A stretch of DNA of 64,000 nt from Escherichia coli (GTDB lineage: Bacteria > Pseudomonadota > Gammaproteobacteria > Enterobacterales > Enterobacteriaceae), in NCBI RefSeq assembly GCF_003334815.1, contig NZ_QOWO01000003.1; one strand, 5' to 3'. A program made the translations under genes and the position numbers. The notes beneath the pieces are model-generated. The model saw nothing but the letters and a program-made list of their open reading frames with translations, ran no database searches and was not told the DNA's origin. Below are positions 49,646 through 52,749 of this stretch, one piece after another; position 1 is the stretch's first letter; every line of letters begins with the position of its first letter.

Positions 49646-51874
49646 ATGTACACACAGACCCTGTATGAGTTAAGTCAGGAGGCTGAACGCCTGTTACAGC
49701 TTTCTCGCCAACAGTTGCAGTTACTGGAAAAAATGCCTCTCTCTGTACCCGGAGACGACGCGCCACAACTGGCTTTACCCTGGAGTCAGCCTAATATCGC
49801 CGAACGTCACGCGATGCTGAATAATGAGTTGCGTAAAATTTCCCGACTGGAAATGGTGCTTGCAATTGTCGGTACCATGAAAGCAGGGAAATCAACCACC
49901 ATTAATGCCATTGTTGGTACGGAGGTTCTGCCTAATCGTAATCGCCCAATGACTGCGCTGCCGACGCTTATTCGCCATACGCCCGGGCAAAAGGAACCGG
50001 TACTGCATTTTTCACATGTCGCGCCAATCGATTGTTTAATTCAACAATTACAACAGCGCCTGCGTGATTGCGATATTAAGCATCTGACCGATGTGCTGGA
50101 AATAGATAAAGATATGCGTGCGCTTATGCAGCGGATCGAAAATGGCGTCGCTTTCGAAAAATATTATCTGGGTGCCCAGCCTATTTTTCATTGTCTGAAA
50201 AGTTTGAATGATTTAGTGCGACTGGCGAAGGCGCTGGACGTCGATTTTCCTTTTTCTGCTTACGCCGCCATTGAGCATATTCCCGTGATTGAAGTGGAGT
50301 TTGTCCATCTAGCGGGGCTGGAGAGTTATCCCGGTCAGTTGACGTTACTGGATACCCCCGGGCCAAATGAAGCCGGGCAACCGCATCTGCAAAAAATGCT
50401 TAACCAGCAGCTGGCACGCGCCTCGGCGGTACTGGCGGTGCTGGATTATACGCAACTGAAATCGATCTCCGATGAAGAGGTCCGTGAGGCGATTTTGGCG
50501 GTGGGGCAATCGGTGCCGCTGTACGTGCTGGTCAATAAGTTCGATCAACAGGATCGTAACAGTGACGACGCCGACCAGGTGCGGGCACTGATTTCCGGGA
50601 CGCTGATGAAAGGCTGTATTACGCCACAGCAGATATTTCCGGTGTCGTCGATGTGGGGCTACCTGGCGAATCGGGCGCGCTATGAGTTAGCCAACAACGG
50701 TAAGTTACCACCGCCAGAGCAACAACGCTGGGTGGAAGATTTTGCCCATGCCGCGCTTGGCAGGCGCTGGCGTCATGCCGATCTGGCGGACCTCGAACAT
50801 ATTCGTCATGCTGCCGATCAGTTGTGGGAAGATTCGCTGTTCGCCCAGCCAATTCAGGCGTTGCTTCATGCCGCTTACGCTAACGCCTCGTTGTATGCTC
50901 TGCGATCTGCCGCGCATAAACTGTTGAATTACGCGCAGCAGGCGCGGGAATACCTGGATTTTCGTGCGCACGGGTTAAACGTCGCTTGTGAACAATTGCG
51001 GCAAAATATCCACCAGATCGAAGAAAGTTTGCAGCTATTGCAACTCAATCAGGCGCAGGTGAGCGGCGAGATTAAACATGAAATCGAGCTGGCCCTGACC
51101 TCCGCCAACCACTTTCTGCGTCAACAGCAAGATGCGCTGAAGGTGCAGTTAGCCGCCTTGTTTCAGGATGATTCGGAGCCGTTAAGCGAGATTCGTACCC
51201 GCTGTGAGACACTGTTACAGACGGCGCAGAACACCATCAGTCGCGACTTTACGCTGCGTTTTGCCGAGCTTGAATCCACCCTTTGCCGGGTGTTAACCGA
51301 TGTTATTCGCCCCATTGAGCAACAAGTCAAAATGGAATTGAGCGAGTCAGGGTTTCGTCCTGGGTTTCATTTTCCTGTTTTTCACGGCGTAGTTCCCCAC
51401 TTCAACACTCGCCAGCTGTTCAGTGAAGTCATTTCGCGCCAGGAAGCAACGGACGAGCAGAGCACGCGTTTAGGCGTTGTGCGTGAGACTTTTTCGCGCT
51501 GGTTGAATCAGCCCGACTGGGGACGGGGAAATGAGAAATCACCGACAGAAACGGTTGATTACAGTGTGTTGCAACGAGCATTAAGCGCAGAAGTCGATCT
51601 CTATTGCCAACAAATGGCTAAAGTTCTGGCAGAGCAGGTCGATGAATCTGTTACGGCAGGCATGAATACTTTTTTCGCTGAGTTCGCTTCATGTTTGACG
51701 GAATTACAGACGCGTTTACGCGAAAGTCTGGCTCTGCGTCAACAAAATGAATCGGTGGTCAGGCTGATGCAGCAGCAATTGCAGCAGACTGTGATGACTC
51801 ACGGCTGGATTTACACCGACGCCCAGCTGTTACGCGATGATATTCAAACACTTTTCACGGCAGAACGATATTGA
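49646..51874 (+). CDS. crfC: Dynamin-like large GTPase
   Basis: ORF track 742 aa; P-loop GTMKAGKST at about 49871..49897; long coiled-coil C-terminal region. Confidence 0.9.
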   Translation: MYTQTLYELSQEAERLLQLSRQQLQLLEKMPLSVPGDDAPQLALPWSQPNIAERHAMLNNELRKISRLEMVLAIVGTMKAGKSTTINAIVGTEVLPNRNRPMTALPTLIRHTPGQKEPVLHFSHVAPIDCLIQQLQQRLRDCDIKHLTDVLEIDKDMRALMQRIENGVAFEKYYLGAQPIFHCLKSLNDLVRLAKALDVDFPFSAYAAIEHIPVIEVEFVHLAGLESYPGQLTLLDTPGPNEAGQPHLQKMLNQQLARASAVLAVLDYTQLKSISDEEVREAILAVGQSVPLYVLVNKFDQQDRNSDDADQVRALISGTLMKGCITPQQIFPVSSMWGYLANRARYELANNGKLPPPEQQRWVEDFAHAALGRRWRHADLADLEHIRHAADQLWEDSLFAQPIQALLHAAYANASLYALRSAAHKLLNYAQQAREYLDFRAHGLNVACEQLRQNIHQIEESLQLLQLNQAQVSGEIKHEIELALTSANHFLRQQQDALKVQLAALFQDDSEPLSEIRTRCETLLQTAQNTISRDFTLRFAELESTLCRVLTDVIRPIEQQVKMELSESGFRPGFHFPVFHGVVPHFNTRQLFSEVISRQEATDEQSTRLGVVRETFSRWLNQPDWGRGNEKSPTETVDYSVLQRALSAEVDLYCQQMAKVLAEQVDESVTAGMNTFFAEFASCLTELQTRLRESLALRQQNESVVRLMQQQLQQTVMTHGWIYTDAQLLRDDIQTLFTAERY

Positions 51875-52749
51875 CCAAGACGTTACTTGACGGCCCCGGT
51901 CGCGTGCTGGAGTCGGTTTATCCCCGCTTTTTAGTGGATCTGGCGCAGGGTGATGATGCCCGCCTTCCACAAGCCCATCAGCAGCAGTTTCGTGAACGAC
52001 TGATGCAGGAACTTCTTTCGCGTGTGCAGCTTCAGACATGGACGAACGGCGGCATGTTAAATGCGCCGCTTAGCCTGCGTCTGACATTGGTGGAAAAACT
52101 GGCGTCGATGCTGGATCCCGGTCATCTGGCACTGACGCAGATCGCGCAGCATCTGGCGCTGCTGCAAAAAATGGATCACCGCCAGCACTCTGCTTTCCCG
52201 GAGCTCCCCCAGCAAATTGCCGCCTTGTATGAGTGGTTTTCAGCCCGTTGTCGCTGGAAGGAAAAGGCGTTAACGCAACGAGGCCTACTGGTGCAGGCAG
52301 GTGATCAGAGCGAGCAAATTTTTACCCGCTGGCGTGCTGGGGCGTATAACGCCTGGTCGTTGCCTGGGCGCTGTTTTATCGTTCTGGAGGAGTTGCGCTG
52401 GGGGGCATTTGGCGATGCCTGCCGTCTGGGAAGCCCGCAAGCGGTGGCGTTGTTGCTGGGTGATTTGCTCGAGAAAGCGACACAACATCTGGCAGAGAGT
52501 ATCAATGCGGCACCGACCACGCGTCACTATTACCATCAGTGGTTTGCCTCTTCGACCGTTCCGACGGGCGGGGAGCATGCTGATTTTTTAAGTTGGCTGG
52601 GAAAGTGGACCACGGCAGATAAACAACCCGTTTGCTGGTCAGTGACCCAACGCTGGCAAACTGTCGCGCTGGGGATGCCACGACTCTGTTCAGCGCAGCG
52701 TCTGGCGGGGGCAATGCTCGAGGAAATCTTCTCTGTAAATTTGGCGTAA
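51871..52749 (+). CDS. yjcZ: Partner protein of the dynamin-like GTPase, unknown function
   Basis: ORF track 292 aa; ATGA start/stop overlap with crfC suggests translational coupling. Confidence 0.85.
   Translation: MTKTLLDGPGRVLESVYPRFLVDLAQGDDARLPQAHQQQFRERLMQELLSRVQLQTWTNGGMLNAPLSLRLTLVEKLASMLDPGHLALTQIAQHLALLQKMDHRQHSAFPELPQQIAALYEWFSARCRWKEKALTQRGLLVQAGDQSEQIFTRWRAGAYNAWSLPGRCFIVLEELRWGAFGDACRLGSPQAVALLLGDLLEKATQHLAESINAAPTTRHYYHQWFASSTVPTGGEHADFLSWLGKWTTADKQPVCWSVTQRWQTVALGMPRLCSAQRLAGAMLEEIFSVNLA

Follow-up and report, generated by a model that had tools for sequence, protein, structure and literature searches.

The 64,000-nt window of Escherichia coli DNA analysed here (contig NZ_QOWO01000003.1, one strand; positions are counted from its first letter) contains the E. 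coli K-12 operon crfC–yjcZ, also known as yjdA–yjcZ or rdcA–rdcB, which is a previously characterised locus and not a new one. An earlier note had described this locus from its sequence as a translationally coupled pair of dynamin-like GTPases. That title is misleading, as the locus consists of one dynamin-like GTPase (CrfC) and an overlapping, interacting partner that is not a dynamin (YjcZ), and the two are not expressed strictly as one unit. Our best explanation combines the identity of the operon, a non-GTPase partner, a likely coupling of yjcZ translation to that of crfC, and an added supply of YjcZ from a sigma-28 (FliA) promoter inside the crfC coding sequence, and taken as a whole we consider it very probably correct. 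Published work has already covered both genes, the binding of their products to each other and what they do in the cell (activation of the diguanylate cyclase DgcE in response to GTP, acting on cyclic di-GMP (c-di-GMP) and curli), and the genes are named in RefSeq; what is added here beyond the RdcA–RdcB literature is a survey of the gene overlap and start codons, the synonymous-site conservation of the sigma-28 promoter, fold models of both proteins, and a link to a three-gene cassette in distant relatives.

Both reading frames claimed in the earlier note, of 742 and 292 aa, were recovered from a list of open reading frames (ORFs) covering 47000-55500 of the window (Table 1). The RefSeq gene boundaries in K-12 W3110 agree with both of them exactly, the genes being named there crfC ('clamp-binding protein CrfC') and rdcB ('diguanylate cyclase regulator RdcB family protein'). 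Window and W3110 show 100% identity over 49400-52900, and the locus is the same, without any sequence difference, as the one encoding the RdcA–RdcB activator of DgcE (PMC6510439). Among 5426 complete E. coli genomes the pair was found in 5418, and at least 80% of the region 49400-52900 was covered in 5401.

The earlier note had seen no recognisable catalytic motifs in the 292-aa protein, and this is upheld by our searches. The sole Pfam match of YjcZ is PF13990 (YjcZ; E = 1.3e-143, residues 21-287 against model positions 1-272 of 272), neither a P-loop nor a GTPase profile was detected, no match was obtained in NCBIfam, PADLOC or the sequences of the Protein Data Bank (PDB), and the best hit to a solved structure by sequence is a chance match (E = 0.4). 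The family is small, with 200 cluster representatives at E ≤1e-3 among 1.84 billion proteins. An AlphaFold2 model of YjcZ built on a 54-sequence alignment is entirely helical, with a mean predicted local distance difference test score (pLDDT) of 90.9 and a predicted template modelling score (pTM) of 0.91, and its fold matches no dynamin or GTPase and has no solved relative in the PDB. A profile-profile comparison of the YjcZ and CrfC families (hhalign) returned a probability of 0.7%, and the idea of YjcZ as a degenerate paralogue of the CrfC stalk was rejected on this result. With no G domain, an all-alpha model and no profile similarity to CrfC, YjcZ does not support the description of the two products as a GTPase pair. 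The most conserved elements of the protein are ELRWGxFGD (174-182) and LGMPRxCSAxR (267-277), and M269, P270, R271, C273, S274, A275 and R277 are invariant among 12 closer sequences. The TTG start of yjcZ is supported by its homologues in other genera, as these begin at the same position (M-x-x-x-L-L-x-G-P-G-R).

For CrfC the label 'dynamin-like GTPase' is sound, because the protein passes the NCBIfam equivalog NF007368 (1597.2 bits against a cutoff of 1146, residues 1-742 of 742), matches Pfam Dynamin_N (E = 7.3e-18), carries G1 to G4 motifs that are invariant in 35 homologues, and gives an AlphaFold2 model (35 homologues) in which a G domain is followed by three very long helices. The P-loop GTMKAGKST that the earlier note had read in the 742-aa protein is indeed there, at residues 76-84. 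The model is structurally similar to MFN2, Cj-DLP1, IniA, BDLP and LeoA, and CrfC is a GTPase of the mitofusin/BDLP class within the dynamin superfamily. GTPase activity, homo-oligomers and a weakening of self-interaction by T103D are reported in the literature (PMC6510439, PMC6374313), and CrfC has been described as soluble and without a typical membrane-binding motif (PMC6374313). Between helices 513-568 and 639-741 of the model lies a segment (569-638, pLDDT 31-58) holding a Trp-rich motif, R613-G626, in which L620 is invariant and R613, R618, W619, N621 and W625 are nearly invariant in the 35 homologues; the form 'WGW', which it takes in other genera, is also kept in CrfC-like proteins of only 30-36% identity. 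Going by the model, this loop presumably stands at the far end of the stalk and may correspond in position to the membrane paddle of BDLP-type dynamins, and we infer that the Trp-rich motif is a candidate contact site for the membrane or for the MASE1 domain of DgcE. Finally, CrfC of Escherichia is ∼40 aa shorter than the orthologues of all other genera (742 versus 775-789 aa), lacking a segment of ∼36 aa that separates the first long helix from the second in those orthologues (after residue 521, window ∼51205-51210) and ∼8 aa in the N-terminal variable region (window ∼49745-49760).

The junction of the two genes is a 4-nt overlap, as the earlier note had claimed, but it reads TTGA in the window, with a TTG start, and not the ATGA given there, which is the form found in 72 loci of other enterobacterial genera. 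To place this junction in context we surveyed 80 species-representative loci with a YjcZ relative (obtained by scanning with the 12 closer sequences), all of them Enterobacteriaceae and from genera including Escherichia, Citrobacter, Enterobacter, Kosakonia, Leclercia, Lelliottia, Phytobacter, Trabulsiella, Yokenella, Superficieibacter, Pluralibacter, Franconibacter and Atlantibacter. A crfC homologue stands directly upstream of yjcZ in 80 of the 80, and crfC–yjcZ is an obligate syntenic unit across the Enterobacteriaceae. When the window and one metagenomic locus are included (n = 82), the junctions comprise 76 overlaps of 4 nt, two overlaps of 1 nt and four gaps of 2 nt. All the 4-nt overlaps other than the 72 with ATGA are TTGA, and these four occur in Escherichia only (the window, another E. 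coli, Escherichia sp. E1V33 and E. whittamii).

No Shine-Dalgarno sequence precedes the yjcZ start, as the predicted pairing of the 20 nt upstream with the tail of the 16S rRNA (–2.8 kcal/mol) is at the background computed inside crfC (mean –2.3 kcal/mol), compared with –6.1 kcal/mol at the crfC start and –5.9 kcal/mol at the proP start. The same holds over the 82 homologous yjcZ starts, where the mean is –2.6 kcal/mol and only 7% reach –4 kcal/mol or lower. Termination-reinitiation coupling is classically recognised by just this combination, an overlap that is conserved and a downstream gene lacking a ribosome-binding site. Since the 4-nt overlap is conserved and yjcZ has no ribosome-binding site of its own, yjcZ is likely to be translationally coupled to crfC. 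On the full-length mRNA yjcZ would then be translated mainly by termination-reinitiation, and its output would be fixed relative to that of its binding partner, while the change from ATG to TTG in Escherichia would be expected to lower coupled initiation and to raise the importance of a separate promoter.

Such a promoter, TAAAGTTC-N11-GTCGATGA, is present in the last 250 nt of crfC. It is an exact match to the motif published from chromatin immunoprecipitation sequencing (ChIP-seq), in which Fitzgerald et al. (2014) found a FliA peak in yjdA 19-fold above threshold with the motif TAAAGTTCTGGCAGAGCAGGTCGATGAA (PMC4183435). In RNA sequencing (RNA-seq) by the same authors yjcZ drops from 52 to 1 when fliA is deleted (PMC4183435), and a published lacZ fusion to the yjdA-internal site is FliA-dependent. 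Scored against the sigma-28 consensus TAAAGTTT-N11-GCCGATAA (16 positions), the site matches at 13 of 16; it is the only match of at least 13/16 in crfC–yjcZ and one of three on both strands of the 64-kb window. A strict sigma-28 pattern, TAAA-N14-16-GCCGATAA, returned nothing in the window because the actual –10 element is GTCGATGA. Upstream of crfC no sigma-28-like site was found (best 10/16), and an earlier prediction of a FliA site at that position has been stated to be wrong (PMC4183435). A generic scan of 49150-53100 for sigma-70 promoters and terminators gave counts near the shuffled expectation. A link of NtrC to yjcZ–proP, taken from ChIP-seq, was dropped, as the gel-shift assay of the ChIP authors themselves did not confirm it.

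Most genera keep a sigma-28 motif at the homologous position, typically TAAAGCTT-N11-GTCGATGT or GTCGATAT, with 12-13/16 matches. In a set of 40 sequences dereplicated at 90% identity this conservation falls on synonymous positions: the register of the promoter has a third-position conservation of 0.83, compared with 0.58 on average, and ranks first of 102 registers. As the sequences share descent, these figures serve for comparison and should not be read as probabilities. The codon choice within the promoter departs from that of the gene as a whole, as Ala is encoded by GCT in 27/35 sequences (9% gene-wide), Leu by TTA or TTG in 32/37 (21% gene-wide) and Val by GTC in 31/40 (25% gene-wide), and the initial T of the –35 element is kept in 34/40 sequences despite five different encoded amino acids. 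The protein sequence does not force the promoter motif, because the peptide KALGAQVDV is present without the DNA motif in a few genera, Trabulsiella among them. This pattern of codon choice indicates that transcribing yjcZ separately, at the time of the flagellar genes, is a long-standing and selected trait and not an accident of E. coli, and the promoter provides an extra supply of YjcZ timed with the flagellar regulon. For comparison, the FliA promoter inside flhC that drives motA, called a 'duon' because it constrains what FlhC can encode (Fitzgerald et al., bioRxiv 10.1101/188474), is alike in being a sigma-28 promoter in the 3′ part of an upstream gene that drives the downstream gene and leaves a footprint in codon choice. 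In the available part of that preprint only the flhC site is singled out as broadly conserved and the conservation of the yjdA-internal site is not discussed; the conservation that we describe differs in that it holds among the genera possessing crfC–yjcZ.

Close to the expected transcription start of this promoter is an in-frame ATG, encoding CrfC M673, and the Met is 97% conserved in the enterobacterial clade and replaced by I, V or L in distant homologues. As a hypothesis only, this ATG might start a 70-aa C-terminal CrfC peptide, which would preserve the coupling of yjcZ on the short mRNA. The coupling claimed in the earlier note is upheld in part: the overlap and the missing Shine-Dalgarno sequence fit it, but expression is partly independent owing to the FliA promoter inside crfC. 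The note had also named a combination that would speak against a coupled pair, namely proteins that do not interact and are expressed independently, and of this one half was found, as the FliA promoter in crfC drives yjcZ separately (PMC4183435) but the proteins do interact.

The interaction experiments that the earlier note proposed largely exist already, as two-hybrid and genetic data were published by Pfiffer, Sarenko, Possling and Hengge (2019), who renamed yjdA and yjcZ rdcA and rdcB (PMC6510439). Deletion of either rdcA or rdcB phenocopies a dgcE deletion in macrocolony matrix, CsgD, csgB::lacZ and c-di-GMP; losing both adds nothing further, and DgcE is activated only when both genes are present (PMC6510439). 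In the bacterial two-hybrid assay RdcA binds itself, RdcB (tightly) and the MASE1 domain of DgcE, and RdcB binds neither RdcB nor DgcE (PMC6510439). RdcA K82A, which does not bind GTP, is active, and RdcA T103D, which does not hydrolyse it, is inactive and has lost DgcE binding with RdcB binding retained; because of this pair of results GTP was proposed to be an inhibitor, and its drop at entry into stationary phase to be the signal (PMC6510439). Nucleotide-free RdcA is thus the active form, and without both proteins DgcE does not raise c-di-GMP through its membrane-anchored activity to switch on csgD and curli. The statement in the earlier note that the role of the second gene is poorly defined no longer applies to its physiology, since DgcE activation is published, but it does apply to its biochemistry; Pfiffer et al. 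consider RdcB as a GTPase-activating factor or a nucleotide-release factor (PMC6510439), and it might also act as a scaffold. Additionally, a 2026 genome-wide screen that sorted cells by Förster resonance energy transfer (FRET) recovered rdcA, rdcB and ynjH among mutants with low c-di-GMP, and ynjH, another FliA-dependent gene, was strongly associated with the RdcA/RdcB system (PMC13031359), which may have in it a third component encoded elsewhere.

A further reported function of CrfC is to bind the beta-clamp via 41-QLALP and to aid nucleoid partitioning (Ozaki 2013; PMC6374313). The protein is the same, and both 41-QLALP and the dynamin-like G domain are present in the window, but YjcZ has no part in this function and the clamp motif is restricted to E. 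coli among the genera compared. It is not conserved elsewhere, reading PLTLPW in Escherichia sp. E1V33 and being replaced by unrelated sequences of the V-x-P-L-H-F type in Citrobacter, Enterobacter, Kosakonia, Trabulsiella and others. The part of CrfC that holds it is variable in length.

Distant members of the YjcZ family, 23-31% identical to the E. coli protein, lie in a different setting, which we read in loci L084-L093 and L003 and in the plasmid loci L095 and L096, none of them in the window. Upstream of these YjcZ genes is a full-length CrfC-like dynamin (∼800 aa, 30-36% identical, matching NF007368 at 1e-118 to 1e-159, below the cutoff), and a Dynamin_N gene was found at this place in all distant loci with upstream DNA (L002, L085, L088, L090-L093 and the plasmids). 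Downstream of YjcZ (∼300 aa) a patatin-like phospholipase of ∼357 aa follows in 11/11 loci, whereas a patatin gene lies beside the chromosomal enterobacterial pair in 0/80 loci. Junctions were read in seven of the cassette loci (six chromosomal or metagenomic, one plasmid) and are overlaps of 4 nt (ATGA or GTGA) or 1 nt, except in L090, where a small ORF of 99 aa separates the dynamin gene from yjcZ. The patatin motifs GGGxxG, G-A-S-I-G (GxSxG) and DGG are intact in 7/7 sequences checked. RefSeq labels the middle gene of the cassette 'diguanylate cyclase regulator RdcB family'.

This cassette is scattered patchily over Gamma- and Betaproteobacteria. Its hosts include Methylomonas koyamae, Pseudomonas spp., Plesiomonas shigelloides, Providencia, Gallionella, Allochromatium, Thiodictyon and Lelliottia; in Lelliottia the cassette is additional to the chromosomal pair that the genus also carries. 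The trio is found on 44 plasmids of PLSDB (Escherichia 19, Klebsiella 16, Enterobacter 8, Citrobacter 1), with a YjcZ ∼76% identical to that of Lelliottia, and in 5/5426 complete E. coli genomes, where it is plasmid-borne every time. Two of these plasmids were inspected; they are IncF plasmids, and in each the insertion sequence (IS) elements IS5 and IS30 flank the trio. In Plesiomonas it adjoins an integrase, and phage records contained no copy of it. In Methylomonas koyamae (L090, 4592-14650) and Pseudomonas sp. KFB-139 (L092, 4979-16429), two unrelated genomes, the trio lies between an extracytoplasmic function (ECF) sigma factor with FecR and a TonB-dependent receptor, and thus inside a FecIRA-like cell-surface-signalling cassette, and in L091 a TonB-dependent receptor and an AraC regulator are found just upstream. 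This gene order hints that expression of the trio may be iron-regulated.

PADLOC 2.0 gave weak matches for CrfC (LeoBC, 5.8e-6; LeoA, 3.2e-5) and none for YjcZ, so that CrfC–YjcZ was rejected as one of the known anti-phage defence systems, and PADLOC recognised no known defence system in the trio. The cassette patatin shares the motifs GGGxxG, GxSxG and DGG with the phospholipase effectors, such as CapV, of cyclic-oligonucleotide-based anti-phage signalling systems (CBASS) and has weak matches to CBASS-type phospholipase models; however, these score far below the family cutoffs, and the cassette has no cyclase or other known defence partner. No paper joining bacterial dynamin-like proteins with a patatin was found in the literature searched.

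The readings that compete with ours differ in what they make of the partner and of the overlap. Bacterial dynamins encoded as operon pairs (Cj-DLP1/2, B. subtilis DynA, Streptomyces DynA/B, IniA/IniC, LeoABC/Eleos) are alike in that a mitofusin/BDLP-class GTPase adjoins an obligate partner gene, but in those systems another dynamin-like GTPase serves as the partner and the membrane is the target, known or suspected, whereas the partner of CrfC is a helical protein of ∼290 aa without a G domain and the known target is a signalling enzyme. That the crfC and yjcZ products co-assemble as two dynamin-like proteins, in the manner of Cj-DLP1/2, DynA/DynB or IniA/IniC, would agree with the overlap of the genes, the interaction of their products and the fact that most bacterial dynamin-like genes are operon-paired, although CrfC is named in the same literature as the exception (PMC6104087). 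As YjcZ has no P-loop or G domain and no Pfam match other than its own family, as its confident model is all helix and finds no dynamin or GTPase fold in the PDB, and as hhalign sees no relation between the two families, this idea is already refuted by the profile, model and fold tests and its chance of being right is negligible. Alternatively, the overlap may be incidental and yjcZ effectively independent, with its own sigma-28 promoter and with direct initiation at the TTG that does not depend on crfC translation. The near loss of yjcZ RNA in the fliA deletion (PMC4183435) and the selection on the promoter motif across genera agree with this, and 4-nt overlaps are common in compact bacterial operons. 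However, direct initiation would have to proceed from a weak start codon with no Shine-Dalgarno sequence, the overlap geometry occurs in 76/82 loci and is kept too in distant family members without the sigma-28 motif, and a plasmid with the whole rdcA–rdcB operon under a tac promoter complements the double deletion, so that yjcZ is expressed from the bicistronic mRNA (PMC6510439). We regard full independence of yjcZ as quite improbable. Several points nevertheless weigh against a coupled operon with an added sigma-28 supply. Translational coupling of crfC–yjcZ was nowhere found demonstrated in the literature searched, TTG is a weak reinitiation codon, and because the sigma-28 transcript cannot couple to full-length crfC translation, at least part of the YjcZ synthesis must start otherwise. 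The RNA of yjdA falls as well in the fliA deletion (111 to 11; PMC4183435) though there is no sigma-28 motif upstream of crfC, and the transcription of the operon is for this reason not fully explained. The confidence of the CrfC model is only moderate (pLDDT 70, pTM 0.55), and the alternative published role of CrfC does not involve its partner.

That role leads to another reading, in which CrfC mainly serves the chromosome (binding the beta-clamp, colocalising sister replication forks and partitioning the nucleoid), YjcZ is irrelevant to this role and the control of DgcE is secondary. Clamp binding via 41-QLALP and the anucleate cells of crfC deletion and Q41A mutants (PMC6374313) argue for it, as does the NCBI family name 'clamp-binding protein CrfC', but the clamp motif varies between genera while the rest of CrfC and the pairing with yjcZ are conserved, and Pfiffer et al. 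argue that the replication phenotypes come mostly from plasmid expression, the deletion having no growth defect (PMC6510439). As an account of the main role it is unlikely, though well short of negligible, and the chromosome role and DgcE activation are compatible and not mutually exclusive. The three-gene cassette raises the question of ancestry. It is possible, if somewhat doubtful, that the chromosomal rdcA–rdcB is a patatin-less, domesticated branch of a mobile three-gene cassette in which the ancestral YjcZ would couple the dynamin GTPase to a lipid-hydrolysing effector at the membrane, and that it was later rewired to the MASE1 domain of DgcE and to the sigma-28 regulon. The ancestral job of the cassette might then be membrane remodelling, vesiculation or abortive defence, and the RefSeq name given to its middle gene would be an over-extension. 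Going further, the enterobacterial pair itself may keep a membrane-directed activity from the cassette, with the binding of DgcE and MASE1 being one readout of a membrane-associated complex. The patatin with intact catalytic motifs behind the distant members in 11/11 loci, the spread of the cassette on 44 plasmids, the Trp-rich loop motif that CrfC-like proteins share ahead of their last long helix, and the integral-membrane nature of the domain that RdcA is known to target (PMC6510439) are consistent with this, but CrfC/RdcA is described as soluble and without a membrane-binding motif (PMC6510439, PMC6374313) and the chromosomal pair lacks a patatin neighbour in all 80 loci, leaving this retained activity with a small but real chance of being correct.

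Our preferred reading, one dynamin-like GTPase with a likely coupled and separately supplied helical partner, makes the operon a clean case of two-layer control of stoichiometry, in which a stop/start overlap without a ribosome-binding site is combined with a sigma-28 promoter that lies in the upstream coding sequence and constrains its codon choice, and to which Escherichia adds a lineage-specific change from ATG to TTG. The two conserved motifs of YjcZ, placed on a confident all-alpha model, are concrete targets for mutagenesis of the role of RdcB in the GTPase cycle. The most interesting outcome of this follow-up, a moderately interesting lead, is the three-gene cassette, which lies outside the coordinates of crfC–yjcZ. 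The GTPase–partner pair is accompanied by a patatin that is catalytically intact by its motifs, both on plasmids and among proteobacteria that are unrelated to each other. This points to a dynamin system directed at the membrane, of which we found no description, and cautions against transferring the annotation 'diguanylate cyclase regulator' to the YjcZ members of the cassette.

Table 1. Coordinates of the crfC–yjcZ genes, their junction, the internal promoter and the protein motifs discussed in the text (window positions)
Feature	Position	Strand	Remarks
crfC (= yjdA = rdcA)	49646..51874	+	ATG-initiated ORF, 742 aa, soluble dynamin-like GTPase
yjcZ (= rdcB)	51871..52749	+	TTG-initiated ORF, 292 aa, all-alpha partner protein, non-GTPase
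TTGA stop/start overlap	51871..51874	+	yjcZ TTG 51871-51873, crfC TGA 51872-51874; junction ...gaa cga tat TGA
Sigma-28 (FliA) promoter TAAAGTTC-N11-GTCGATGA	51619..51646	+	252 nt upstream of yjcZ start; exact match to published ChIP-seq motif
In-frame ATG (CrfC M673)	51662..51664	+	∼9-10 nt downstream of expected sigma-28 transcription start; candidate start of short CrfC peptide (hypothesis only)
CrfC G1 / P-loop GTMKAGKST, residues 76-84	49871..49897	+	K82 = lysine mutated in literature; invariant in 35 homologues
CrfC G2 catalytic threonine T103 (in PMTALPT)	49952..49954	+	invariant in 35 homologues
CrfC G3 DTPG, residues 236-239	50351..50362	+	invariant in 35 homologues
CrfC G4 NKFD, residues 297-300	50534..50545	+	invariant in 35 homologues
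CrfC Trp-rich motif R613-G626 (RETFSRWLNQPDWG)	51482..51523	+	loop between last two long helices
CrfC QLALPW, codons 41-46	49766..49783	+	published beta-clamp-binding motif (41-QLALP; PMC6374313)
YjcZ signature E174-D182 (ELRWGAFGD)	52390..52416	+	L175, W177, G178, G181 invariant across the 54 sequences of the family alignment, with identities as low as 20%
YjcZ signature L267-R277 (LGMPRLCSAQR)	52669..52701	+	conserved arginines R271 and R277; P270 invariant, R277 at least 90% in 54 sequences

In W3110 the operon is preceded by phnE-phnD-phnC-yjdN-yjdM and followed by proP-pmrR-pmrB-basR-eptA. The yjdN–yjdM intergenic region of the window holds three tandem units of 100 nt (48616-48915), the second and third with 98% and 78% identity to the first, which resemble a repeat cluster of the repetitive extragenic palindromic/bacterial interspersed mosaic element (REP/BIME) type and in which spurious ORFs arise on both strands. 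On the other side proP starts ∼260 nt after yjcZ in Escherichia, with no intervening gene (window 52750-53012), whereas most other genera, Enterobacter and Citrobacter among them, have an opposite-strand gene of 332-336 aa between yjcZ and proP (4935-5933 (–) in locus L023, same position in L008), encoding a protein that is hydrophobic judging by its translation.

Natural disruptions of the operon are rare in E. coli. In the chromosome of E. coli 19KM2326N, a dog-caecum isolate (L094, 8556-9503), crfC is deleted and rdcB is reduced to its last 81 codons, and the extra YjcZ match in this strain was accordingly rejected as a paralogue; in strain TOE17 the operon region is in two pieces around an IS1 element. 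Some E. coli assemblies contain proteins of 438-475 aa that bear both the Dynamin_N and the YjcZ Pfam domains and are 94-100% identical to part of YjcZ, and these may be in-frame crfC–yjcZ deletion fusions or artefacts of assembly or annotation.

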